Assembly (NCBI GenBank): GCA_000091205.1
Contig: AP006502.2
DNA: 64,000 nt
DNA from: Cyanidioschyzon merolae
Taxonomy: Eukaryota
Direction: 5' to 3' (one strand)
Part shown: one piece after another, positions 4,542 through 38,528 of the stretch
How the letters are laid out: each line of letters begins with the position of its first letter
Numbering within the stretch: position 1 is the stretch's first letter
Notes under the pieces: model-generated
What the model saw: only the letters and a program-made list of their open reading frames with translations
What the model was told of the DNA's origin: nothing
The model's database searches: none
Translations under genes and position numbers: made by a program

Positions 4542-6917
4542 TTGTCTTTGTCAGCGAACATCGCTCCTCACCGCCAGATTCCATCAGTCATGGTAGAAGT
4601 ATGGCGTGTCTTGTTCGCGATCGTCTGTGTTTGCTTCTCCGCTATGTTTGCCGGCCTGACACTGGGAATGCTCACTCTCGATCTCTTCGATTTACGCATA
4701 ATCGCAGAGTCGGGAACGGTTCGTGAGCGCGAACAGGCGCGAAGAGTCATGAGCGTACGCAAGCACGGTAACTATTTGCTCTGCACGCTGCTTACCGGAA
4801 ACACAGCTGCGAATGCGCTTTTCTCTATTCTGACCGCGGAGCTAACCAGCGGCCTTATCGGCTTCGTCATTTCCACACTAGCAATTCTCTTCTTCGCCGA
4901 AATCATTCCCCAGTCTATCTGCCACCGGTTCGGGCTACGCATCGGAGCGGCCATGGTCTGGCTGGTGAAAATCTTCATGATCGTGCTCACCCCGATTTCC
5001 TTTCCCACAAGCCGCATTCTTGACTATTTTCTCGGAACAGAGCCAATTACGCGTTACAATAAGCGCGCCCTCAAAGCGCTTCTCAGCATTCAAACTAGAG
5101 ATAATGCGATCGCAGCTGCAGCTGAGACAGTGCAGGCCGAGCGACAGCGGAAGGCGCTCAAAACACGGCGACGCCGTCGTCGAAAGAAACGAGGTAGTGT
5201 TCAGAACTCACCGGTAACTTCCACTGGGGAGCATCCGCGAAGCTCGAACGAAACTGCTCCGGGACACGGCAAGTCGCTCAAGGATGCGATGAGACGCGCC
5301 TTTCGTAGCCGGTCGAGCAGCGAGCGTGCGTCTACGGAGAATCCCACTCCAGAAAGCGAAGCGGAGTCGGGCGCGCTGAGAGTCACCGGCACAGCGGATG
5401 CGATGTCGAGCAAGCTGGACGCATGGTCAACAGCGCCTGCAGACGCGCTCGTCGATGTCGAGCGGGGTGTTTCACCTTCACCGGCTGATGCGCGGATTAT
5501 CGCCCGTCCTCCAGAGGCGAGCGTCATCGGTGGTCGGGACTCGGCCTCGATTGTTGCCGGTGCAATTGGTGCCACGTACGCGGCAGCAGCGTCCAAGGCA
5601 AGCACTGAGCAGATCACCATGGAGGAGGGCCTGATCCTGAGCGGTGCTCTGGAATTTGCTGCCAAAACAGTCGAGCAGATTATGACGCCGCTGAATAAGG
5701 TTTTCATGCTGAGTGGCAAGGATCGACTGGACTTTAAAACCATGGCCAGCATCTTCCAGTCGGGACACTCACGTATTCCAGTCTACCTTGGAAAGCGCTC
5801 CAATATAACGGGTGTCATATTCACGAAGGATCTCATTTTGATTGACCCAGACGATAATATACCGGTATCGGCGATCTTGCTGCTCTTTCGTCGCGAGTTG
5901 CGTCGAGTCGTTGCGGATGTGCATCTCAACGTGCTGTTGAACGAGTTCAAGACGGGTCGCGGGCATCTCGCGATCGTTCAGCGGAGCAGCTCCGACGAAG
6001 CCGTCGGCATCGTGACCCTCGAGGATGTGATCGAGGAGATCATTCAGTCAGAAATTGTAGATGAAACGGACGTGTATCGGGATAACGTGCGGGATGAAGT
6101 CGTTGTCCGCAAACGCCGCATCGACGCGGATTTGCTGCGGATGCTGGATTCCACGCCCCGGTACGAGACGCACTTGACGGCCGGTGAGGTGTCCATTATT
6201 GCCTCCTTCTTGGCGAACAACTTTGCACGAGAATTTGGGGAATCAAAAATGAGCTTTCATCAATTGGAACATCTTTTGGCGAATTGCACCATCGCTGAAT
6301 ACGACCGACCCGGAGCGCCTATCAACGGCTTGGCTGAGGACGAGCCCTCACACCGAGATGCCATCTCCGATACTGCTGGGGCTAGTGACGACGATGCTTC
6401 TATACGCAAAGCGCCTGAGGTCACCGTATGGGACCTGGACGGCACGCGCAGTGCTGGGAGCAGCCCTGCGTGGATGGCCAGTCGGGGTCTGGACTTTGCC
6501 GCCGCCACGGGACGATCCTCCGGACGCAGTTTCGGTAGCAAAGAGGAGCACCATACGCTCGCTGCTCGGCGTTCGATACCGCTGAGTGCTGCCTCTGCAG
6601 ATGACTTGACAGAGCGATCGGCTGATTTCTACATCTACAAACGAGGTGTACCGTCGCATCACGCCACCCTGATCCTGTCGGGGCACGTGGAAATCATGTG
6701 GGATCGACGAAGGCGCATCTCTGAGACAGGGCCTTGGACGCTTCTCGCGCGAGAAGCTCTCGAAGATGAGCTCTACGTTGCAGATTTTACTGCGCGTGGG
6801 GTGGAGTTTCCGCTGCGCTTGTTGCGTATCCCTACCCGTCTCTATCGGCGATCGATACGGTTGTCGGCGGAAGAAGCCGCCTCGCCTCAGGCTGGTGTGA
6901 AAAGCAGCGCTTCCTGA
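4542..6917 (+). CDS. CNNM/DUF21 family metal (Mg2+) transporter-like protein with CBS-pair domain
   Basis: The N-terminal multi-pass hydrophobic DUF21 region is followed by a CBS pair ('MTPLNKVFMLSGKDRLDFKTMASIFQSGHSRIPVY...GIVTLEDVIEEII'). It has a long low-complexity insert and a C-terminal cNMP-binding-like tail. The 791-aa ORF is uninterrupted. Confidence 0.85.
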   Translation: MSLSANIAPHRQIPSVMVEVWRVLFAIVCVCFSAMFAGLTLGMLTLDLFDLRIIAESGTVREREQARRVMSVRKHGNYLLCTLLTGNTAANALFSILTAELTSGLIGFVISTLAILFFAEIIPQSICHRFGLRIGAAMVWLVKIFMIVLTPISFPTSRILDYFLGTEPITRYNKRALKALLSIQTRDNAIAAAAETVQAERQRKALKTRRRRRRKKRGSVQNSPVTSTGEHPRSSNETAPGHGKSLKDAMRRAFRSRSSSERASTENPTPESEAESGALRVTGTADAMSSKLDAWSTAPADALVDVERGVSPSPADARIIARPPEASVIGGRDSASIVAGAIGATYAAAASKASTEQITMEEGLILSGALEFAAKTVEQIMTPLNKVFMLSGKDRLDFKTMASIFQSGHSRIPVYLGKRSNITGVIFTKDLILIDPDDNIPVSAILLLFRRELRRVVADVHLNVLLNEFKTGRGHLAIVQRSSSDEAVGIVTLEDVIEEIIQSEIVDETDVYRDNVRDEVVVRKRRIDADLLRMLDSTPRYETHLTAGEVSIIASFLANNFAREFGESKMSFHQLEHLLANCTIAEYDRPGAPINGLAEDEPSHRDAISDTAGASDDDASIRKAPEVTVWDLDGTRSAGSSPAWMASRGLDFAAATGRSSGRSFGSKEEHHTLAARRSIPLSAASADDLTERSADFYIYKRGVPSHHATLILSGHVEIMWDRRRRISETGPWTLLAREALEDELYVADFTARGVEFPLRLLRIPTRLYRRSIRLSAEEAASPQAGVKSSAS

Positions 6918-8038
6918 GCAGCACCTGTCATGGCCCTCTGGTGTGCAGCGCATAGCTCTGGGCTGAACGCACGCTGCGCGCGTGTGAAGCACTGCAGATA
7001 CTCGGACCGTGCAACCGCACTGAGCGACGCCAATGCTGCCTGGAAACGAATCTGGTATGAGTTCGTCCAGATGCTGCTGCACGATGATGCTCAACGTTCG
7101 ATGAAGGATCCATGACCGGTACGATGCGTGGATTCGCTGCATCGGACATGAACTTTGTGGTTCTTGACGACCGCTTAGCGTCTGCTGGGGGATCATGGTC
7201 GACGCTCGCTGACGTTTACAAGAAAGACACGGGATCTGGATTCGCAAAAAGTCGCTGCGCAAGTGCACGCTGATGCTGATGTGGACAAGCGCGTTATCAC
7301 AGGTGACAACGCCTCGGACATGTAGGGTCTCATTTTCCAAGCCGAGTGTACCCATACGGCAGCAACTTTGTGGACCGAAGCGCCGAAGGAATGTATAGCT
7401 TCTCAAAGAGAGCGTTTGTCACGACAGTTGCCCGCGTGCGGCGGATAGCCACGAAATCTACGATTCGTAAATACGTCAAGTTGGACCGCACAGAGCCCAT
7501 GTAAACGCTTCAGATGCCACGGTGGCAAAGTCAGCTCCGCAGACACTCGGGCTCGAGCACGGTCTCGGAGCGCAATCCCTCTATTGTAGTATTGGCGCTT
7601 GGCGAAACGTACTGACTGCTGATCGAAAAGTGATGTCCTCTTTTCACGTCGCTTTCATTCTCGCGCTAATGACGACTGTGCAGTTCAACCGTCCATGCTT
7701 CCGAGTGAAATCCTGTGATCGCTCTTGCAACCGTTGCTGCCGTATGCAGCGACCATGCCCGAAAAACACCAAACTTCGGTCGTTTCACATGACCGCTCAT
7801 AGGAGAGTACACCGATCCACTGCCACCGGTTCACAGAGCGAGACGCCTGTTCAAAGGCACGGTCCAAATGGCTCCAGGCAACCTTGGGGATGCCGGGGAC
7901 GGGCTCCTTGCCTAGGTTGCTTCAGGCGTCGAATCGAATCCGGCATCCGGCATCCGATTCGATCCGACCGACCCGAAGCGTAGGTATTCGCTGGAATATC
8001 CTTGCAAAGTTGCTACCGTTTTTCGGCAGTCACACATA

Positions 8039-8226: not shown

Positions 8227-9510
8227 CTAGAGATGCACGTGCTCGGGCGTCGCTGAATCATCGGCATCCTTGCGATAGTACTCGATGAGAACGCGAGCAA
8301 CACACTCGCGCATGACACGACTATCGGGAATGCGTCCTGCTCGAAGCGTTTCGCGCATTTTTGTACCGCTAATACTAACCGGTGTCATTCCTGGGTGCTC
8401 CTCAACCAGGCCGACACGACCTAGCTCTTCAAAATACGCAGCATAACCCACGGGAATCGCTTCAATCGCCAGCTTGCCACCCAGGCTGCGGAAGATGCGC
8501 TGGGCCTCAAAATCATCCCAAATGGGGGTCTGATCATCGTACGGGGCATCGGCGTGTTTGCGTCCTACAATGAAATGCGTGAAACCCAGGTTCTGTCGAT
8601 AGATTGCGTGCATGACGGCCTCGTTGGGTCCAGCGTAGAACATGCGCATGTCGAGGCCCACCAGATGCAGCTGCTCGTGCAACGACTGTCCAGCTCGCTT
8701 CCAGACGTCCTCGTTTTGGTCACCTTGGCCAAGCACGCGCTGCTCTACCAGATTGATGTACGTTTGCATGCGAACAGTCGCTGGTACATCGTCCGACTTG
8801 AGCTCGCCCACAAGCGGATTCAAAAACACGCCCGTGTATCGCTCGGGATGCGCGGAGAGCAACTGTTCCGCCCCGTGAACCAGCGCATATTCATGCGCGC
8901 GATGCAGTGGGTTGCGCGTCTGGAATGCTACTGTCTGCTCGAAGCCTCGATGTTGAATGAGCTCTCGGACCTGTAGTGGTCCTTTGATGTACGAGGCGAA
9001 CGGGCGCGGGTCGGGTGCTGGTTCAAACATACACAGCGAGCCGCCGAGGCTGAAGCGCCGGCTGTCACCTGTCCACAGTCGAGCGCCCGGGTGATCTGTG
9101 CGTTCCGTTCTATAAACAATGCGTAAAAAACGTTGTAGATCGCGCTCATATATCGTTTCCACGGTCAAGACTCCTATAGCGACGCTGTTTTCGTCACGAA
9201 GGACGACCTCATCGCCGACTTTAATTCTGGCGGCATCCTCTGCGTCAACAGGTAGAAAGATGGGAATCGTCCAGGCGTAGGCTTCCCCGTGCCGCACGAT
9301 GCACGCACGCTCGAGAACGCTCTCGTAGTCATCGACGTTCATCGGCCCGGTAAGAGGTGACAGGGTTCCGTCCGCTATGCGGTGAAGCGTCGTGCAGTCC
9401 GCGCTGCTAACCGCAACGGACGGGCGGCTCAAGAGTGCCTCCACCGGCAGCCGGTTCCCGTACCGGTTCACTGGCTCGGCCAGTCCACCGTGAACTGGAG
9501 CTGTAACCAT
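8227..9510 (-). CDS. sulfate adenylyltransferase (ATP sulfurylase)
   Basis: Shows the ATP-sulfurylase motifs 'FQTRNPLHRAHEYA' (QTRNP.HRAHE) and 'VGRKHADAPYDD' (GRDHAG-type), plus an N-terminal PUA-like region. The 427-aa ORF is intact. Confidence 0.9.
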   Translation of the reverse strand: MVTAPVHGGLAEPVNRYGNRLPVEALLSRPSVAVSSADCTTLHRIADGTLSPLTGPMNVDDYESVLERACIVRHGEAYAWTIPIFLPVDAEDAARIKVGDEVVLRDENSVAIGVLTVETIYERDLQRFLRIVYRTERTDHPGARLWTGDSRRFSLGGSLCMFEPAPDPRPFASYIKGPLQVRELIQHRGFEQTVAFQTRNPLHRAHEYALVHGAEQLLSAHPERYTGVFLNPLVGELKSDDVPATVRMQTYINLVEQRVLGQGDQNEDVWKRAGQSLHEQLHLVGLDMRMFYAGPNEAVMHAIYRQNLGFTHFIVGRKHADAPYDDQTPIWDDFEAQRIFRSLGGKLAIEAIPVGYAAYFEELGRVGLVEEHPGMTPVSISGTKMRETLRAGRIPDSRVMRECVARVLIEYYRKDADDSATPEHVHL

Positions 9511-17990: not shown

Positions 17991-20291
17991 TCACAGACCG
18001 AACTCTTCATCAAGAGCTGCAAATCGCAAGGCATCTGAGTATTGCCAGATACCGCTTCTCTGGTGCCTAGCTTGCTGCTCTTCCGCTGCGAAACGATGCG
18101 CAGCGGGCCGTCTGGTACCTTCGTCCTGCGGGTGAAGACACCAAGCGAGTCCACGCTGAACGAGCAGCCCGGCAACCGAGGTACCAGCTTCGTCTATACT
18201 ATGAAAGGATCGCGGCTCCTGTGTCGTTGGCCTGGACGCAACAAGCAGGTCGCCCAGCACAAGTCCTAACTCGGGCGCAATGCTTGGTGCGGGACCAGGG
18301 TCCTGTTTCGTCACCACCACATTTAGGGGGCGGTCCCATGTCAGTTCCCGTAACAAGGTACCGCTCTGCTCCCAGCACGGCTCGTCTGTATCAGGCACTG
18401 CAATGTCGTCAAACCTAAATGCAAACGTCTGTGCCGGGAGTTGCTCTAGAATGTGTACGTTCGCATCATGCGGAGGGAGCGTTCGCAAATGCGATGCATC
18501 AACCCAGAGCTCGCCGCCGCTGTCTATGAACCGTAAAAAAATCAAGTCGTGCTCACCTGGTGCAGTGTCCAGCACCCGAGCACGGTACCAGGGGCGTTCA
18601 CCAGGGTACTGGGCCAATACCAGGTCGAATGGGTGCGGCATTGGCTTGTGCGCGGTCTCGGTAACGAGTTGTCTCGCAACCAGATCACAAAGCTCTTGAA
18701 TGCGCGCTGCTTCAGCAGGATTTGCTTTTGGTGAGCGCAGAAAAAGCAAGCCGCCGGGAAGAATCTCCGTTACCGTTAGTGAACGCCAAACCACAGCTCT
18801 ACCCGAGTGCTCTGCGCCCACCCGCGACAAGCCGATCTCCTTGCCCGCGTCTGCAGAGACCGATGGAGCGGAAACAGCCCAGAGGCCTCGACGAGTTCGC
18901 TGCGCTCTTTGTTGCGCGCTTTGCAGCTGTTGCCAGGTCGCCGCAGGAAGCGATGCTCGCTCGAGCAGCGTGGCTAGACCTGCCTGCACCAGATGCTCAG
19001 CCCAGTCCCCGGAAAAAACGACATTTTGCTCGGAAGGATCCGTTTGCGATAGGGAAGGCCCCAGAACATACAGCGTGCCGAGAAAAGTCCCATAGCGATC
19101 GACATCCAAGATACGGACCCGCACGTCGCGCTGAAGAACATGCCTCCGTGCCTCGTTGTATGCACGCCAGCTGCAGTCCTCTTCCGCGGACAAGCGCTGG
19201 CCCTCGGTTTCGATGGGCCGAGGAACCGCACAGCGAACACCAGCGAGCGCAAATGATACTAGCAGCGCATCCTTGTTGAGGAAGACTTTGAAGCGAGACC
19301 CACTTCGAACGTATTCAACGATGCCGATACGTTCGCTCGTATCCGACAACGATTGCTGGCTTCCGCAGAGGATTGGGAAGAGGTCGCGAGCTCGACGACT
19401 TGCTTCTCTGCGAGTGACGTCATGGATGCGCCGAGGCTGCGTCAGGATCGTAGCAGGAGTCGTTGACCCCCGAGGTACAGCGCTCTCTCCGGCACCAGAC
19501 CTGTGAAGTGTAGAGCCGGTGGGCGCCCTCGAGCCGCCTCCCTGCTTTCGTTGCTGTTCTGGCGGTTGCTGCTTCCTCTTGCGCTCGATTTCGACAAAAG
19601 TGTTGACAGCTTGCTGACACGCTGCATCGCTTTGGTCGTTCGGGAGGGTCTTCAACTGAACCAGACCAGCTTCGAGTAGGGCAGCATTCAGCAAGCAGTC
19701 CGCCTGCCACAGGAGGACCTGCGGAACGCCCGTAGATGTCGATGAGGCGCTGCTTACCCTAGAAGGGCGCTGCGAAACAACTTGCACCCGAACGAGACCG
19801 GGGTGACCAATGAGACGCGTTCGTAGCCACTCGCGTGCAGTGAACCCTCCTTCGGTATCGAGCGGATATGCTCTGACGAACGCTAGCCCAACTTGCAATG
19901 CGCTTTGCAACGAACTCGTATGCAGCACCGGTTCCTGACTCGTATCTGTTGTCATCGATGTAGCAGACGCAGTCGTAGAGGTCGCCCTGGAACGTTGGTG
20001 CGACGGCAGCAATAATAGTGAATCACCGGAGAGCACTTGGATGACCTCAGCTTGCCAACGTGATCCGATTTCCGTCAAGTTAGGCGCCTCGAGTGGGCTC
20101 GCTGCTTTCGTTGTTGCGGGAGAAAACTTCCACCAGCCAAGCTCACGACGTCGAGCGTCTTCTTGAAGCGATTGCCAGCGCTTTGCATAGGCTGATACCA
20201 AGTCCATACCCCAGTCGCTCATCCAACCGAGACCGTTTCGGAGCAGGGCCTCTCCGAGCTGTGCATGCAGCGTATACGTCTCCTGTTGTTG

Positions 20292-20322
<31 letters not shown>

Positions 20323-21620
20323 TCGTCATGTAATGAATCGACTCCCGAGCCAGAGACTCCGCGGACAGTCACGATCCAGTGACCCAGCGGCGTCTGCTCT
20401 TTCCCGTAGACAAGGATATCGCGCTGGAGCAGAAACCGCTCGGTAAGAAAACGGGCTTGAAGAGCGATTCGTCCAGCGGGAGAGTTCGGATCCTCTGGGG
20501 AGGCTTTTGCCCCTAAATCGGTGTTATTCGAATCTGCTCGAGTTTGGCCAGATGATACGGATGGGGTTGCAAGACCCGCGAGCCAGGCGAGGATGAGCGC
20601 ATGCCGCTGCACCTGTCTGGAACTCTCTCGACTCGGTGCGGTTGCCGGCTCTGGAACCCGCAAAAGAACCACCGAACCACTAAGAACGCGTTCCACAACC
20701 GCCTTCAAATAAAAGGATCCGCCCATAGGTATATTCGCCTCCAACCAGGTCTTGACTTGGGTTACAGGCACAACAATGTGACGTTGAGGGTACTGCTTAC
20801 TCCAGATGCCGCATTCGTGAGCTCTTGCAGCTACCTCATCCTGCTGAAGCGCTGGATAGACGTGCGCAGCAAACCACTGCGCTACCACGATATTCCTCTG
20901 ACTGCAAAAAGCAGCGGTCTGGGAGCCCATCCCTACGTCACGCTGCTCCGGTGCCTGCGTTGCTGGTGCTGTCGTCGTCACCGTAGAGCTGCGTTCGCCT
21001 AAAGACGTCAAACCTTTTGGGCCAGTAGCGCTGGCGTGTGTACCCAATTGGTTTGGTGCAAGTCGTGCAAGCCCTGCTTTCAACAGCTGGCTCTGCAAAG
21101 ACTCCTTCGGGTCTAGATGGACAAGTGCGTACTCCGAGTGCCCATCGGTGCCAACGATGGAGAAGGTGACGTGGCGACCAATGGTGCTTTTCCGGGACCA
21201 TTCGCGGGCTTCAAACGCCCAGTCTTGCTCGATATCATCAGAAGCGGGGGATAAACCGTTCCCTTCGCACCCGTCCTTCGTCAGCAGAGCGTGACGATCA
21301 CCTGCTTCCGTTGCCGGGGCAGGGACGGAACTCGACTCCGGTCGTTGAGCAGGACAGGCGCGTGGTGTTTGAATCCCAGCGAGTCGAACGCGTCGAGCAG
21401 CTGGCAGTTCCGTACGAGAGAGATCTGCTGATGTCGGTGTCCAGAGTACGAGTTCATCCGCCTCGAGTACCGTACCAACGATTGCTCGTAGCCAGACGGG
21501 CGACGAGCTCGCGTCTTTTTCCGCGGATATTTTCATGGTTCCAGTGACACTTTGACCAGCGTCTGTTGTCTTCGGGCTATCAAGTCGCATGTTCCAGGTG
21601 GCCGTAAACGTGTGTAGCAC
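17991..21620 (-). CDS. staphylococcal-nuclease-domain and Tudor-domain protein (SND1/Tudor-SN-like), 1209 aa with poly-Gln tract
   Basis: The N-terminal SNase-like fold signature is 'VWLRAIVGTVLEADELVLW...RRVRLAGIQTPR', with several repeated SN-like modules. A Tudor-like segment 'YRARVLDTAPGEHDLIFLRFIDSGGELWVDASHLRTLP' is present. A Q22 run is encoded at 20285-20326. Confidence 0.65.
20285..20326. repeat. (CAA/CAG)n coding trinucleotide repeat (poly-Gln) inside the SND1-like gene
   Basis: The plus strand reads 'gttgttgttgttgttgctgctgctgctgctgctgctgct'; the minus-strand coding sense is CAG/CAA. Confidence 0.9.
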
Positions 21621-31786: not shown

Positions 31787-33937
31787 GTGTGCGAGAGCGC
31801 GTGGCTCCGTTTCCCCATGGAGCGGAACGGAAGCTATACACACCAGCGTGCTCACTCAGAACGAAACTTTTCCAGCGATGACGAGGGACCCGTTCAGAAC
31901 GAGTCAGTTCCGCCGCCCAGTGCCTACAGCACCGTCGAAGTTGTGAGCGAGCGCAACGCTGACGAGCGGCGCCTCTACTTCACCCTCCACGATCACGGCT
32001 TTATAAGTGCGCTCCACGACATACCGCTCTACGTTGACCGAGAGAAGGGTATTTTAAATATGGTCGTTGAAATACCCCGCTGGACGAATGCCAAGTTTGA
32101 GCTGCGGACGCGACTTCCCTTGGCGCCTATCATGCAAGACGAGAAGAAGGGAAAGTTACGGTTTGTGCAGAACGTCTACCCATACAAAGGGTATATCTGG
32201 AACTATGGATGCTTTCCGCAGACATGGGAGGATCCAGAGCAAGTCCATATGGAGACGGGTGCCCTTGGTGATGGCGACCCGCTCGATGTCTGTGAGATCG
32301 GCCAGCATATCGCACAGATCGGTTCGATCAAGCAGGTGAAGGTGCTCGGCGTGCTGGGTATGATCGACGAGGGAGAAATGGATTGGAAAGTTCTGGTGAT
32401 GGATGTGCGAGACCCCAACGCCGACAACTTGAATGATGTTGACGATTTGTATCGCACAATTCCTGGTTTGGTGCACGCTACGTTTTCCTGGTTCCGCACA
32501 TACAAGGTGCCCGATGGCAAGGAGGAGAATAAGTTTGCTTTTCGCGAACGCGTACAGAGCCGCCAATACGCCCTTGAAATTGTCGAGGAGTGCCACAGAA
32601 GCTGGCAGCGACTTGTGTACGGAAAGGTGAAACACAGCAACCACCACTGTTCGAATACAACGCTGACTGATACACCACTCTACATGCCACCTGAAGAGGC
32701 AGCGTCCGTGGTCGAGCAGGTTCGCACGGAACTGAGCGCAACCACCGAGAACACCGGGGATGCGGGAATGAAACATGGTGCTCTTGCGACACGATCTCTG
32801 CGACCACTTCATCGTGAGGCCTCGATCAGTCAGCTGGAAAAATTCCACATGCCTGATTTCGCCCAGGAACTCACCAACGAATTCAATCAGCACGAGCGGT
32901 CTCTCTTCCAGGCGCCTTCGGAGACGATCAAGCACTTTCTGACGGAGCAACAGCGACAATATCCACACGGTAGTTCAGAGCTCTCGCTCCTCATCACCGA
33001 ATATGGAACAGCAGCGAAGATCATCGCCTCGAACATCCGCGATCAACCGGAGGCACCATTTGAGTACATGCGACAAAACGCCGATCGACAGCTGCATACC
33101 GCGCTGGCGACTTCAGGCTTCTGTTGCATGATCTATTCAGCGCAAACCGGGCAAATGATGCCCTTGGACCTGGACGCTGGCATTGGCAACTATGTCGTGG
33201 TCTACACTGCACTCGTTGGTGAAGTCGGCGGCACGCTGGGCAGCCTTTTTTCAGTTTATTATCGCAAATCTTACTCGGGTCGCGAGGGAGATACTGCTGA
33301 TCTGTTGCAGCGAATTGGATACGAGCAGGTAGCAGCTGGGTATGCACTGTACTCTTCGTCTGTGCATCTGGTGATTAGCACAGGTCTTGGCGCGCATATC
33401 TTCTTTCTGGATGATATCAGCGGGCACTTTGTACTGCGACAGAAGTTTGTGCAGATTCCACCCCGAGGTCGTGTCTATTCAGTAGACATATCGAGTTTAC
33501 CAAAAGCGATTGAGGGCGTGCGCCGCTATCTCGCCCAGCTGGAGTCCTCGAATGCGTCCCGTGAAACGAAACATACAGCGCTGATGGACGGACCAGCACC
33601 TGGCAAAATCTTTCGTTACGAACACAATGTGGTGGGCAATTTTCACCGGATTCTGCGGCACGGTGGTATCTTGCTGATGCCGGGACCACGGACCAACGCT
33701 TTGGCAGACTTTTTGGGTGTTGCGGCGCCGCTTGCGTTCTTGGCGCGTCAAGCAGGCGGCAAAGCGAGTGTGGGTAAGCGCCCAGTCTTGGAGCTGAGTG
33801 CCTGGACCCTGGATATGCGCGTTCCGCTCTTCATTGGCAGTATGAGCGATGTGAGTGATCTGGAGGTGTGCATTCTCGGACATCCGGTTCCGGAACGCTC
33901 CATCGTTACCGCTTCAGAGACTGTCTCATATACGTGA
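31787..33937 (+). CDS. fusion protein: family-I soluble inorganic pyrophosphatase (N-terminal) + fructose-1,6-bisphosphatase-like domain (C-terminal)
   Basis: PPase signature 'GDGDPLDVCEIG' and 'ILNMVVEIPRWTNAKFEL...KVLGVLGMIDEGEMDWKVLVMDVRDP'. The C-terminal 'GKIFRYEHN...LARQAGGKASVGKRPVLELSAWTLDMRVPLFIGSMSDVSDLEVCI' matches the FBPase C-terminal consensus (GKLRLLYE.NP....EKAGG.A..G...vLd..P..iH.R.P...GS..dV). The single ORF is 716 aa. Confidence 0.8.
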   Translation: MCESAWLRFPMERNGSYTHQRAHSERNFSSDDEGPVQNESVPPPSAYSTVEVVSERNADERRLYFTLHDHGFISALHDIPLYVDREKGILNMVVEIPRWTNAKFELRTRLPLAPIMQDEKKGKLRFVQNVYPYKGYIWNYGCFPQTWEDPEQVHMETGALGDGDPLDVCEIGQHIAQIGSIKQVKVLGVLGMIDEGEMDWKVLVMDVRDPNADNLNDVDDLYRTIPGLVHATFSWFRTYKVPDGKEENKFAFRERVQSRQYALEIVEECHRSWQRLVYGKVKHSNHHCSNTTLTDTPLYMPPEEAASVVEQVRTELSATTENTGDAGMKHGALATRSLRPLHREASISQLEKFHMPDFAQELTNEFNQHERSLFQAPSETIKHFLTEQQRQYPHGSSELSLLITEYGTAAKIIASNIRDQPEAPFEYMRQNADRQLHTALATSGFCCMIYSAQTGQMMPLDLDAGIGNYVVVYTALVGEVGGTLGSLFSVYYRKSYSGREGDTADLLQRIGYEQVAAGYALYSSSVHLVISTGLGAHIFFLDDISGHFVLRQKFVQIPPRGRVYSVDISSLPKAIEGVRRYLAQLESSNASRETKHTALMDGPAPGKIFRYEHNVVGNFHRILRHGGILLMPGPRTNALADFLGVAAPLAFLARQAGGKASVGKRPVLELSAWTLDMRVPLFIGSMSDVSDLEVCILGHPVPERSIVTASETVSYT

Positions 33938-34380: not shown

Positions 34381-37300
34381 TCACGATGTACCCGCTCCAT
34401 CGCGACCGCTGTCATCAGCGATACCTCCGGTCACATCGTCATCATCGTCAAGAGTCAGGTTGCCGAGGTCTACCTCGCGCGCCATGCTTGCCCGAGCTAT
34501 TTGCGCATAGATGCCATGAGCGCGCTCCATGAGTACGTAATGGGGTCCTTGCTCGACGACGTGTCCACTTTCGATGACACTAATCATGTCGGCAAAGTAG
34601 AGACTCTCGACGAGGTCGGCACGCAGCACGAAAACGACAGTGCGACCCGTGCAGATCGCTTTCAGGTCCAGTGCGACACCGTTCACCGTCATATCGAGCA
34701 ACGCCGCGTAACTCTCCGAGTCCAACAGAAGCATACTCGGATTACGGAGAAGGACGCGTGCAATGCCCAGCGCCTGCAACTGCGACGACGTGAAAAGCGC
34801 CTGTGCCGTTCTCGCTGATGGAACCATGGTCTGGTATCCGTTCGCAAGACGTAGAATCACCTCATGCATACCGACTAACGAGGCCGCACGGCGTACTTCC
34901 GCAAAGCATGTCCCAGTAGCACCAAAAGCGATGTTCTCGAAAACAGTCAGGCCGGCAATGAGACGGCTACCACGCCAGGGCACCAAGCCTATGGCAGCCG
35001 TCAGGGCCGCAGATGTGTAATCCTGCATCGGGTGCTCGCCAAGCATGATCCTGCCGCTGTCGGGGCGGCGCTTACCCGAAAGTAGCTCCAAAAGCAGTCG
35101 CTCCTCGCGTCGTTTCCGTAGAATGATACAATGGATCTGGTGATGTTCGATGGTGAGGTTCAGACTATGAAACACGTACTGCGCATAACGGCTGCCGATA
35201 CCATGCCGCGGGACCTTAGGATCGAGCGTATATGACTCCGCAAAAGAGCCGAACGGGGTTCCTGGGGACTGTGCGGAGGCGGGTGCGCTCCCGCTACGGC
35301 CACTGGTGGTTGACGAGACGCCGCGATCCTCTTCAAGAGGCGATGCGGTGGATGAGGCTTTCGATGCCCAGTCCTCAGGATCGTCCTTGACCGAGACATT
35401 ATCGAAAACAACGCGTACGCAGCGGTCGTCGACGCGCAAAACAGTTCCCAATCCTGCCTGACTAGCATCAACGATATCGAGCACGAAATCCAGGTACGCA
35501 TAGAGGTTCTGGCGTGCGTGCGAGTAACGCACCAGATTCTCCGTCATTCGAAGCAAGCTGATAATAAGCATGATGGCGAACAGAATGGCGGTTACTAGAC
35601 GGCCGCTTGAGCGATGCTTCGTTCTGGCAAGATGCCCGCCAATATAAATACCCAATACCGCGAAAATAGCGAGCACGAGGCCAAACGTCAGACCGCGTAG
35701 CAAGGACTGCAAGAGGTTCAGCCGCGCATCATGTTCACGTTCCACATCCGTAAACTCGTAAAGCCGTTGGAACTCCTTCTGGAACTGTTCTAGATAGACG
35801 ACGTTCGGCAGCGCAGCTCGGGACAGTTGCAGAAACTCACGAGCTTTCCGTGCTGCTTCTTCGTACCGCTGCTGGGCCCTGCGTGTAACGAACAGCTGGA
35901 GCATGCCCAGACCAGCAAGAATGGGCGTCGTGCCCAGAAGCACCAAAGTCAGAAACCAACTTTCAATGATACCGAAAATAAAGCTGCTGATAGCCTGCGC
36001 TGCGTACAAAGCGACACTCGACAGGTGCTCCACAGCGTCCAATACAAGTAGCTCCATTCGATCCAGTGTGTTCTGTTCGAAGAGCCAGCGATCGAGTCGA
36101 TCCGTGCCGACACCCGTTGTCAAAAGAAGCGCAGCAAACGACCAGAGACGGAGTCGGTAACGGACACGGCGACCAATCGTACCAAGCGAGCGACTCTGCC
36201 AGAGAACTACAAACGCAGCGGCACCGCTGATCACCCCGAATCCGATAAGGTAGCGATGAATGCTCGACACTGGGTTTCCAGCGATCACACCGTAAAAGAT
36301 CTGTGCCCAGTAATTCACGACGTGCCCGAAAAGGAACAGATACGCGGGAAAAATAACGCCAGATGCAAGGGCTGCCAACAACCCACCGACTGTCAACAGA
36401 GGTGCATTGAGGAGCCACTGACGCGGTGATAAGAGGTTCGCGATACTCTTCAGTTCTGCTAGATTGCGCTCAACGGTGTCCGAATCCACGGAGCACGCAC
36501 AGAGCGAAAATCCACAACACTGGAAGAGACCGCATCGGCGATTCCAGAGGGGTGGCAACGCTGCACTCATCGCAGGTTCGTCGGCAGAATCTCCATTCGC
36601 ATCATGCTGAGGTAAAGACTCTTCTGCACACTGTTTGGTGGCAGTCGAACTGGAACCAAGCGCCTTCTTCATCGATTCCGCCAGGGTGCGCGCGTACAGC
36701 GAGCCATCCGGGTAGATCCCGTAGACAAGCATCGCATAATAATCCATAAAAAATTCGCCGTGATCCGGCGAACTTCGCAACTTCTTGTTGAACACGTGTC
36801 TGAGGGCCTTGAACTTACCAAAGCCCCGCATGGAATCACCAGCTGGAAGCGACGTGGAAGCTTGCGCATCGCCTGGATATCGGCCAGCGGGCCCTGCAGA
36901 GCCAAAAGACGGCGATGTTTTGGGAAAGGCAGCCTGCATCCCCTGACGTGCTGCAGCTAACTGTTTCCCCGATGGATGTGGACCCTGCGCAGGTTGCGCC
37001 CCCGCAATATCGTCAACTGTAATCGCCACTGCGTCTTGGTCAACCAAACTCCGATTCATGGCGGCTTGAAAGGTCCCGTGTACAGCGTCGCTCGCTGTGG
37101 CAGGCGGCGTACTCTTGTTGAGATACTTGCGTGGAACGTAGGTTGGCGGCTCGTCTTCAGACGATGCGGAAGACAACGCCGAAGACGAGAGGTGTCCCGC
37201 CGAGCCTGTGTCCCCTGTATGAGCACCTGCGACAACGTTGTTTGCGGAAATAAGGCCAGTTCGAGGCGCGCTTTCAGACTGCGCACTGCCGCCGTCTGCA

Positions 37301-37704
37301 GCTGCTGCCGCCGAAGCTGTGCCTGCGACAACGTGTCTCTCGTCCGTACCACTCTGAGCTGCTGAAGAGCCACTGCTCTCAACTATGCTGAGTGCATTCT
37401 CGACAGCACGACCTTGAACAACACCAGCGGGTTCCATAGGGTTTCCGTGGGTCTCGAGATTAGCAGCTGCGCCGCTTCGTGAGCTCCCAGTCGACCGGGT
37501 GCTCCCAGCTGCGTTTGGCCTAGTAATATCCTCCCGTCGCTCCCCTGGACCATTACGGTTCGCATCCATAAAGTATCCAGTTCCCTTGTACGGATTTCCC
37601 GTGACCTCCACTGGACAATAGCACAAGGGGAACCCAACAGAGCGTTGCGTTTGTTCGCAACCTGGTGCTGCGGCGAAGAAACCGCGAGTACGAATCTTCT
37701 TCAT
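34381..37704 (-). CDS. ABC-transporter-like membrane protein (TMD + degenerate, probably non-catalytic NBD) with long disordered N-terminus
   Basis: The ABC NBD fold is recognisable in the C-terminal ~250 aa, but the key motifs are degenerate. Walker A position reads 'IILRKRREERLLLELLSGKRRPDSGRIML'. The signature LSGGQ is replaced by 'SSQLQALGIARVLL'. Walker B 'LLLDEAT' is replaced by 'LLLDSESYAALD'. Six or more TM helices lie upstream. Confidence 0.6.
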   Translation of the reverse strand: MKKIRTRGFFAAAPGCEQTQRSVGFPLCYCPVEVTGNPYKGTGYFMDANRNGPGERREDITRPNAAGSTRSTGSSRSGAAANLETHGNPMEPAGVVQGRAVENALSIVESSGSSAAQSGTDERHVVAGTASAAAAADGGSAQSESAPRTGLISANNVVAGAHTGDTGSAGHLSSSALSSASSEDEPPTYVPRKYLNKSTPPATASDAVHGTFQAAMNRSLVDQDAVAITVDDIAGAQPAQGPHPSGKQLAAARQGMQAAFPKTSPSFGSAGPAGRYPGDAQASTSLPAGDSMRGFGKFKALRHVFNKKLRSSPDHGEFFMDYYAMLVYGIYPDGSLYARTLAESMKKALGSSSTATKQCAEESLPQHDANGDSADEPAMSAALPPLWNRRCGLFQCCGFSLCACSVDSDTVERNLAELKSIANLLSPRQWLLNAPLLTVGGLLAALASGVIFPAYLFLFGHVVNYWAQIFYGVIAGNPVSSIHRYLIGFGVISGAAAFVVLWQSRSLGTIGRRVRYRLRLWSFAALLLTTGVGTDRLDRWLFEQNTLDRMELLVLDAVEHLSSVALYAAQAISSFIFGIIESWFLTLVLLGTTPILAGLGMLQLFVTRRAQQRYEEAARKAREFLQLSRAALPNVVYLEQFQKEFQRLYEFTDVEREHDARLNLLQSLLRGLTFGLVLAIFAVLGIYIGGHLARTKHRSSGRLVTAILFAIMLIISLLRMTENLVRYSHARQNLYAYLDFVLDIVDASQAGLGTVLRVDDRCVRVVFDNVSVKDDPEDWASKASSTASPLEEDRGVSSTTSGRSGSAPASAQSPGTPFGSFAESYTLDPKVPRHGIGSRYAQYVFHSLNLTIEHHQIHCIILRKRREERLLLELLSGKRRPDSGRIMLGEHPMQDYTSAALTAAIGLVPWRGSRLIAGLTVFENIAFGATGTCFAEVRRAASLVGMHEVILRLANGYQTMVPSARTAQALFTSSQLQALGIARVLLRNPSMLLLDSESYAALLDMTVNGVALDLKAICTGRTVVFVLRADLVESLYFADMISVIESGHVVEQGPHYVLMERAHGIYAQIARASMAREVDLGNLTLDDDDDVTGGIADDSGRDGAGTS

Positions 37705-37774: not shown

Positions 37775-38528
37775 AACGGATCTCAAGATCGACGCTGATG
37801 CGCTGATACATATCGGAATTTGGACACGTGTGCTTCGCGGACCTCGTGTGTGCCTGCGTGCAACGTACATGAATCGGTACATTTCAGTTCGCAAGATCGA
37901 CGCTGATGCGCTGATACATATCGGAATATGGACACGTGTGCTTCGCGGACCTCGTGTGTGCCTGCGTGCAACGTACATGAATCGGTACATTTCAGTTCGC
38001 AAGATTGACGCTGATGCGCTGATACATATCGGAATATGGACACGTGTGCTTCGCGGACCTCGTGTGTGCCTGCGTGCAACGTACATGAATCGGTACATTT
38101 CAGTTCGCGAGATCGACGCTGATGCGCTGATACATATCGGAATATGGACACGTGTGCTTCGCGGACCTCGTGTGTGCCTGCGTGCAACGTACATGAATCG
38201 GTACATTTCAGTTCGCAAGATCGACGCTGATGCGCTGATACATATCGGAATATGGACACGTGTGCTTCGCGGACCTCGTGTGTGCCTGCGTGCAACGTAC
38301 ATGAATCGGTACATTTCAGTTCGCAAGATCGACGCTGATGCGCTGATACAAATCGGAATATGGACACGTGTGCTTCGCGGACCTCGTGTGTGCCTGCGTG
38401 CAACGTACATGAATCGGTACATTTCAGTTCGCGAGATCGACGCTGATGCGCTGATACATATCGGAATATGGACACGTGTGCTTCGCGGACCTCGTGTGTG
38501 CCTGCGTGCAACGTACATGAATCGGTAA
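37775..38528. repeat. minisatellite: ~7 tandem copies of a 108-bp unit
   Basis: The unit '...cgctgatacatatcggaatatggacacgtgtgcttcgcggacctcgtgtgtgcctgcgtgcaacgtacatgaatcggtacatttcagttcgc(a/g)agatcgacgctgatg' recurs at 37801, 37909, 38017, 38125, 38233, 38341 and 38449. It produces 36-aa periodic artefact ORFs on both strands. Confidence 0.95.

Follow-up and report, generated by a model that had tools for sequence, protein, structure and literature searches.

Can an exporter of the ATP-binding cassette (ABC) superfamily be preserved by selection after its ATP-binding motifs have been lost, and, if so, what could such a protein do? This question is raised by a gene of the red alga Cyanidioschyzon merolae, located on the minus strand of a 64,000-nucleotide stretch of contig AP006502.2 (assembly GCA_000091205.1), hereafter called the window. 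The initial annotation, made from the DNA letters of the window, had noticed there an open reading frame (ORF) of 1107 aa for an ABC-type protein with an intact fold and fully degenerate ATP-binding motifs, and had suggested that it might be a non-hydrolytic pseudo-transporter. The analysis described below supports this suggestion, as far as the lack of hydrolysis can be deduced from the sequence and the predicted structure. We consider it fairly probable that the protein is a homolog of the ABCB half-transporters of the multidrug resistance (MDR)/P-glycoprotein (P-gp) type, whose nucleotide-binding domain (NBD) would have turned into a pseudo-ATPase and which would perform an ATP-independent role.

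The maximal ORF, 34381..37704 (-), is present in the window as claimed, and its residue numbering is used throughout this text; only a part of it, however, is maintained. Residues 1-45 (37570..37704, minus strand) are non-coding, and the protein is at most 1062 aa long, since in-frame stops occur in this 5′ extension in three closely related strains known from metagenomes (L003, L005, and L006), where the ATG that opens the maximal ORF reads 'MT*'. The gene proper occupies 34381..37569 (-), from Met46 to the stop codon (1062 aa); Met46 is also the start of the GenBank protein, and residues 46-1107 are identical to XP_005539168.1/BAM83132.1 (P0018 in our set) of C. merolae 10D, encoded on a contig of 1.62 Mb. 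As the gene is already annotated in GenBank, under the product name "ABC transporter, LktB-related", it is not a new one.

Degeneration of the Nucleotide-Binding Site

The equivalents of the ABC motifs were established by alignment to a canonical bacterial NBD and to plant ABCB1; all of them lie on the minus strand. In the NBD alignment the Walker A motif GPSGAGKT is covered by LRKRREER (35098..35121, residues 862-869), with Glu868 at the position of the Walker lysine, so that the earlier reading of this site as LRKRREERL (residues 862-870) was correct. The remnant of the Q-loop is GLVPWRGS (34966..34989, residues 906-913), where VPWRGS replaces V(T/S)QE and is aligned to GMVTQE, with the loss of the Gln, and the X-loop reads TMVPSARTAQ in place of the canonical TxVGExG. 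The signature (C-loop) LSGGQ/E is represented, in both alignments, by FTSSQ (34780..34794, residues 971-975); the string SSQLQ, previously proposed for this motif, does exist at residues 973-977, and the signature is indeed lost, but the proposed equivalence is two residues out of register. Walker B, again in both alignments, is reduced to MLLLDS (34717..34734, residues 991-996) over hhhhDE: its Asp is still there, but Ser996 takes the place of the catalytic Glu, and the string DSES (residues 995-998), assigned to this motif from the beginning, was placed correctly. Finally, in the NBD alignment the H-loop IAHRL is opposed by FVLRADL (34612..34632, residues 1025-1031), where Asp1029 stands for the His.

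Canonical motifs were looked for elsewhere in the protein as well, and none of the patterns GK[ST], G....GK[ST], SGG, or [LFY]SGG[QE] occurs anywhere in its whole length. The AlphaFold2 prediction agrees with the alignments: the strand preceding Walker A ends at residue 862 and a helix starts at residue 865, so that the model lacks a P-loop, the glycine-rich loop having given way to an N-terminally extended helix. As the alignments have it, every motif contacting ATP or participating in catalysis is replaced; this applies to the P-loop and the X-loop, to the Gln of the Q-loop and the His of the H-loop, to the glycines of the signature, and to the Glu of Walker B.

Predicted Fold and Affiliation of the Protein

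The degenerate site is embedded in a domain architecture that is readily recognized by profile searches. The Pfam model ABC_membrane (PF00664) is matched with 43.2 bits against a cut-off of 28, and ABC_tran (PF00005) with 36.4 bits against a cut-off of 25; the latter match, covering only positions 27-133 of the 137 in the profile, begins just past the P-loop and stops at the Walker B Asp. PDB matches to the NBD were obtained with E-values of 1e-20 and better. Based on Pfam, AlphaFold2, and a phmmer search of the PDB, a transmembrane domain (TMD) with six long helices, of the type IV ABC exporter, MDR/P-gp type, was delimited at 35446..36420 (residues 429-753, minus strand), while the pseudo-NBD, at 34480..35178 (residues 843-1075, minus strand), was delimited by the ABC_tran match, sequence conservation, and a predicted local distance difference test score (pLDDT) of 85-95.

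The AlphaFold2 model, built for residues 330-1085 from an alignment of 37 sequences (mean pLDDT 74), comprises six long transmembrane helices, an NBD with the above pLDDT of 85-95, and a disordered insert at residues 779-839 (pLDDT <50). In a Foldseek comparison of the model with the PDB, the matches were TmrB, MsbA, CmABCB1, Atm1, HlyB, ABCB10, and P-gp (E ~1e-23 to 1e-25), with TM-scores of ~0.70 as normalized on half-transporters. A complete fold of a type IV ABC exporter half-transporter is thereby predicted, in line with the intact ABC fold recognized by the initial annotation. The latter had proposed a comparison with ABCB half-transporters, leaving their type unspecified; the TMD-NBD order of a half-transporter was found as expected, and the type suggested by the TMD is that of MDR/P-gp. 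When the TMD alone (residues 400-760) was compared with the PDB by phmmer, 49 matches were retrieved (E 2e-13 to 1e-4, identity ~20%), all of them to P-gp, ABCB4, ABCB11, plant ABCB1/19, CmABCB1, or Ste6, and none to MsbA, HlyB, TAP, or the mitochondrial ABCB proteins. Thus the TMD appears to resemble the MDR/P-gp clade only, and not HlyB/LktB, with the reservation that this likeness stands at ~20% identity and comes from PDB matches rather than from phylogeny.

As to the database label "LktB-related," it is not supported by our sequence comparisons. All NCBIfam family models score far below their cut-offs, and the one corresponding to the type I secretion transporters HlyB/LktB, TIGR01846, gives 92.8 bits against a cut-off of 725.55. 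The protein shares with HlyB and LktB a generic similarity of the NBD (E 1e-20 to the HlyB NBD); unlike them, it lacks a C39 or C39-like N-terminal domain, and its TMD has no HlyB match.

Orthologs and Age of the Loss

Were the degenerate motifs a peculiarity of C. merolae, orthologs with intact motifs would be expected. A word-index search with the whole protein gave only two relatives, the low-complexity N-terminus dominating the words, and was redone with the TMD-NBD part. With this part as the query, HMMER, reading all 1.84 billion cluster representatives, detected three orthologous sequences, P0002, P0021, and P0022 (E 6e-281 to 9e-133), followed by ordinary ABCB proteins, mostly full-length, at E ~1e-46. 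No ortholog with intact motifs was found among these representatives. The three orthologs are colinear with the C. merolae protein at 41-63% identity, and two of them are syntenic, as far as the context is available. P0002, 63% identical over the TMD-NBD part, adjoins genes for a pyrophosphatase-fructose-bisphosphatase (PPase-FBPase) fusion and a diacylglycerol kinase (DAGK)-like protein, as does the C. merolae gene. P0021 is F1559_000863 of Cyanidiococcus yangmingshanensis, whose gene model (739 aa; L007, ~6200-7130, VWRR01000001.1) is cut short by a frameshift inside a low-complexity insert; downstream the pseudo-NBD runs on without stops in another frame, being partly called as a separate 185-aa "gene," and the frameshift is probably an assembly indel. 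P0022, the most distant one (41% identity), lies on contig L004 (SRR31152685, 4435 bp) with a GC content of ~66-73% vs. 55% in C. merolae; a 443-aa ORF upstream of it on this contig has no Pfam match.

All three orthologs carry degenerate motifs. In the four-sequence alignment, given in the order C. merolae, P0002, Cyanidiococcus, P0022, the Walker A position reads LRKRREER, VRKRKEER, VRKRREER, and ITHAWTEK; the signature, FTSSQ, FSQAQ, FSPAQ, and LTKAQ; Walker B, DS, DS, DT, and DT; and the position of the H-loop His is occupied by Asp, Asn, Ser, and Arg. The Q-loop Gln, the catalytic Glu, and the H-loop His are missing in all four. Since the losses are common to these sequences, they are old and predate the divergence of the respective lineages.

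These alignments also bear on the idea that the protein is still an ATPase, or at least binds nucleotides, in some non-canonical mode. The Walker B Asp is retained, the signature still ends in Gln, the hydrophobic core of the NBD is complete, and P0022 keeps a Tyr at the A-loop position. Nevertheless, there is neither a glycine-rich loop nor a Lys-Ser/Thr pair, the Walker lysine position being taken by Glu868; in the AlphaFold2 prediction a helix passes through what used to be the P-loop; and the three catalytic residues just named are gone from every sequence. We therefore regard such an activity as highly improbable.

Selection on the Degenerate Protein

Another simple explanation of the motif loss would be that the gene is a pseudogene, or an artifact of annotation or assembly with an ORF open by chance. 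Apart from the loss of all the catalytic motifs, it could be favored by two interruptions: the above-mentioned frameshift in the Cyanidiococcus assembly and the split of the gene, on one metagenome contig (P0010 + P0012, 5862 bp), at residue ~223 into ORFs of 185 and 816 aa, which reflects an error of assembly or else a naturally occurring allele devoid of most of the N-terminal arm. Both frameshifts, however, are located in low-complexity segments and leave the downstream frames intact, while no stop interrupts the 1062 codons in C. merolae 10D or in 12 or more strain variants, and there are colinear orthologs at 41-63% identity.

Substitution patterns argue against this explanation still further. 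In the four-sequence alignment, invariant positions number 99 of 233 in the NBD, 87 of 325 in the TMD, and nine of 290 in the N-terminal region. The respective identities of C. merolae and P0002 are 72, 64, and 26%, the NBD having the lowest non-synonymous divergence (dN 0.175); four neighboring genes are 64-82% identical between the two genomes. Because synonymous sites of this pair are saturated (proportion of synonymous differences, pS, 0.70-0.82), the closer pair of P0002 and Cyanidiococcus was used for the ratio of non-synonymous to synonymous divergence (omega), with the neighboring genes as a calibration. Omega, as a rough estimate, was 0.076 for the NBD, 0.066 for the TMD, and 0.13 for the N-terminus; two neighboring enzyme genes gave 0.079 and 0.031, so that the values of ~0.07-0.08 in the two domains are like those of these genes (0.03-0.08). 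Within the species, the C. merolae protein is represented by 13 strain variants with differences at 0-12 residues, mostly in the N-terminal part, and with a single variable site (1007) in the NBD. Judged by these comparisons, the gene is functional and selectively maintained, and within the protein constraint is strongest on the dead NBD, which surpasses the TMD in conservation; decay of the gene, which had already been argued against on account of the length of the ORF, seems barely credible.

A Putative ATP-Independent Half-Transporter

What, then, could the conserved protein do? Some of the answer is suggested by comparison with its nearest characterized relatives, the MDR/P-gp clade (ABCB1/4/11, plant ABCB1/19, Ste6), which includes CmABCB1 (CMD148C) from C. 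merolae itself. CmABCB1 is an active ATP-driven homodimeric pump (PMC8733880), as was reportedly found by Kodan et al. in 2014. The protein under study shares with this clade the TMD-NBD order of a half-transporter and the type IV exporter fold, its model matching the CmABCB1 structures 3WME/6A6N with E ~1e-23 and a TM-score of ~0.70. It differs from them in being only ~20% identical, in having lost all the ATP-binding and catalytic motifs, and in possessing an N-terminal extension of 380 residues, which carries a PPxY motif and a cysteine cluster, and a 68-residue insertion in the NBD.

A chain without a P-loop would not be able to bind ATP canonically, and for that reason the protein is unlikely to be self-powered by ATP hydrolysis. 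In a homodimer both composite nucleotide sites would be dead, and were the chain paired with a canonical one, the P-loop would be missing from one site and the signature from the other; consequently, no consensus site would be formed in either case, which makes an ATP-independent role the most likely. The NBD may survive as a structural module docking on the conserved intracellular coupling loops and probably mediates dimerization or conformational control. The likeliest working form would be an ATP-independent homodimer in a non-organellar membrane, serving for gradient-driven or facilitated transport, or for gating or regulation, and the long disordered N-terminal arm is probably involved in trafficking and membrane anchoring.

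The alternative to be taken most seriously is that the protein works only as the non-catalytic half of a heterodimer with one P-loop, its obligate partner being a canonical ABCB half-transporter encoded elsewhere, e.g., a CmABCB1-like one; there it would modulate or silence the ATPase of the partner or provide one half of the path taken by the substrate. It is common for type IV exporters to be heterodimers with asymmetric NBDs (PMC7756269), the TMD belongs by its matches to the same clade as that of CmABCB1, and the strong conservation of the intracellular coupling regions and of the NBD core is what would be expected if conformational coupling still mattered. On the other hand, in the known heterodimers Walker A is preserved at the degenerate site, which binds ATP, and the non-canonical residues are distributed over both chains (PMC7756269), while here a single chain combines the loss of Walker A, Walker B, the H-loop, and the signature, so that a heterodimer would be left without any consensus site. 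Nor is there another ABC gene nearby: the 64-kb window contains no second one. We are thus inclined to consider such a partnership somewhat unlikely.

The difference from the exporters with one degenerate site (TAP1/2, TM287/288, TmrAB, BmrCD, MsRv1273c/72c, and also CFTR, SUR, MRP1, and Pdr5) deserves to be specified. Like them, the C. merolae protein has a non-canonical Walker B Glu, H-loop His, and signature, and the idea of a dead site with a structural or regulatory role is common to both (PMC7756269). Unlike them, it has lost the P-loop, and its halves of both composite sites are dead, whereas those exporters keep Walker A, tight ATP binding at the degenerate site, and, in every case, one consensus site. 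A review of degenerate sites in the type I/IV exporters deals only with transporters that have one ATP-binding degenerate and one consensus site (PMC7756269).

Several points weigh against the ATP-independent role proposed above. The inability to bind ATP is deduced from the sequence and from an AlphaFold2 model, and the present results do not separate a homodimer from a heterodimer. The P-loop replacement differs in the most distant ortholog (ITHAWTEK vs. RKRREER), with no new ligand site being evident. As to the selective maintenance, the between-species synonymous divergence (dS) is near saturation (pS 0.63-0.80), which is the reason why the omega values are rough, and the within-species counts of synonymous and non-synonymous differences (2/5 in L003 and 5/12 in L005) are too few to test selection.

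If the proposed role is accepted, a tentative evolutionary scenario may be offered, according to which this extremely acidophilic red-algal lineage has made a P-gp-type exporter independent of ATP, turning it into a proton-gradient-driven or facilitative carrier or into a regulatory pseudo-transporter, with the dead NBD acting as a nucleotide-free module for dimerization and gating. C. merolae lives at very low pH, and a proton-driven mode would, speculatively, be plausible there. A loose precedent is provided by the peptide transporters SbmA/BacA, which have an ABC-exporter-like membrane domain, do without ATP, and are driven by the proton gradient; no homology is implied by this likeness, and SbmA has no NBD, while here the NBD is complete, though dead, and exceeds the other domains in conservation.

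No paper on this gene was found by its product name or accessions, the C. merolae ABC literature that was retrieved being concerned with CmABCB1 only, and no description of this degeneracy of motifs was found. Neither was a precedent for a pseudo-NBD, a pseudo-ABC transporter, or a pseudoenzyme of this kind, although the coverage of the literature search was incomplete and the negative result does not amount to evidence of absence. In lacking every nucleotide-site motif while being conserved, the half-transporter looks new, though within a known type, and looks like a lineage-restricted orphan. If the interpretation is true, evolution would have produced here a natural "pseudo-ABC transporter" devoid of any functional nucleotide site. 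For ABC specialists the case is unusual. In the known exporters with degenerate sites, one working ATP site is always preserved, and the dead one still binds ATP. A protein of the present kind would also offer a natural test case for what the ABC fold does without a nucleotide, for the structural share of the NBD, and for the operation of a type IV TMD on another energy source. The question is experimentally accessible, since C. merolae proteins are thermostable and CmABCB1 is an established structural model; the alga is also genetically tractable. At the level of databases, the finding corrects the misleading name "LktB-related" and the truncated gene model of Cyanidiococcus.

N-terminal Arm, Inserts, and Other Conserved Features

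The first ~350 residues had initially been described as a low-complexity disordered region. Low complexity does extend over about residues 46-317 (36754..37569, minus strand), but residues 1-45 do not belong to the protein and conserved islands occur within the arm. The Ala/Ser/Gly-rich region 46-317 (41% of these three residues), delimited by composition, identity, and the absence of a Pfam domain, is presumably disordered and poorly conserved: its identity to the orthologs is only 23-26%, and 10 of the 12 non-synonymous differences of strain L005 fall into it. The N-terminal 384 residues of the protein as a whole (46-429) contain no Pfam domain.

The four-sequence alignment reveals several conserved elements, all on the minus strand. 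The island EDEPPTYVPR with the PPxY motif (37129..37158, residues 183-192) is kept in C. merolae, P0002, and Cyanidiococcus, where it reads PPAY, and is absent in P0022. The arm is followed by the motif FFMDYYAMLVYGIYPDG (36703..36753, residues 318-334), with the pattern YYAxxVYGIYPDG, and, just before the elbow helix, by a juxtamembrane cysteine cluster, CGLFQCCGFSLCAC (36493..36534, residues 391-404), which is kept in C. merolae, P0002, and Cyanidiococcus and only partly in P0022. The intracellular coupling regions, e.g., RYRLRLWSFAALLxTTGVxTDRLDR, and an acidic C-terminal tail are conserved as well. Between strand beta-1 of the NBD and the rest of this domain, at the place of the A-loop, there is a Ser/Ala/Pro/Gly-rich insertion of 68 residues (35179..35382, residues 775-842, minus strand; pLDDT <50), which is almost absent in P0022.

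As for the location of the protein in the cell, the maximal ORF begins with an F-rich, transit-peptide-like sequence, MKKIRTRGFFAAAP, and targeting to the plastid or mitochondrion was considered on this ground. In other strains, however, this start lies outside the coding sequence, and the N-termini of P0002 and of the Cyanidiococcus protein are acidic, unlike organellar targeting peptides, which argues against such targeting. Judging from these N-terminal sequences, a plastid or mitochondrial location is unlikely.

Genomic Context

The window is nuclear DNA with a GC content of 55% and with dense intronless genes on both strands; C. merolae is a nearly intron-free red alga. The neighbors of the ABC gene encode the PPase-FBPase fusion, the DAGK-like protein, a ClpX-like protein, and glyoxalase II, and no functional link between them and the ABC gene is apparent. 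Farther away, the locus is surrounded by ordinary eukaryotic genes, such as those of a CNNM-type metal transporter (4542-6917, +), ATP sulfurylase (8227-9510, -), and an SNase-Tudor protein (17991-21620, -). The fusion gene (31787-33937, +) combines inorganic pyrophosphatase (PF00719) with FBPase (PF00316/PF18913); it is kept at 706 aa in L001, L005, and L006, and the Cyanidiococcus assembly calls only a 401-aa FBPase part.

The intergenic region ~215 bp upstream of the real start codon of the ABC gene is occupied by a tandem repeat (37784..38527) of 6.9 copies of a 108-bp unit, 98% identical. Three ORFs (321, 258, and 242 aa) are artifacts created by the repeat, which strain L005 has too, while the orthologous site in L001 lacks it.

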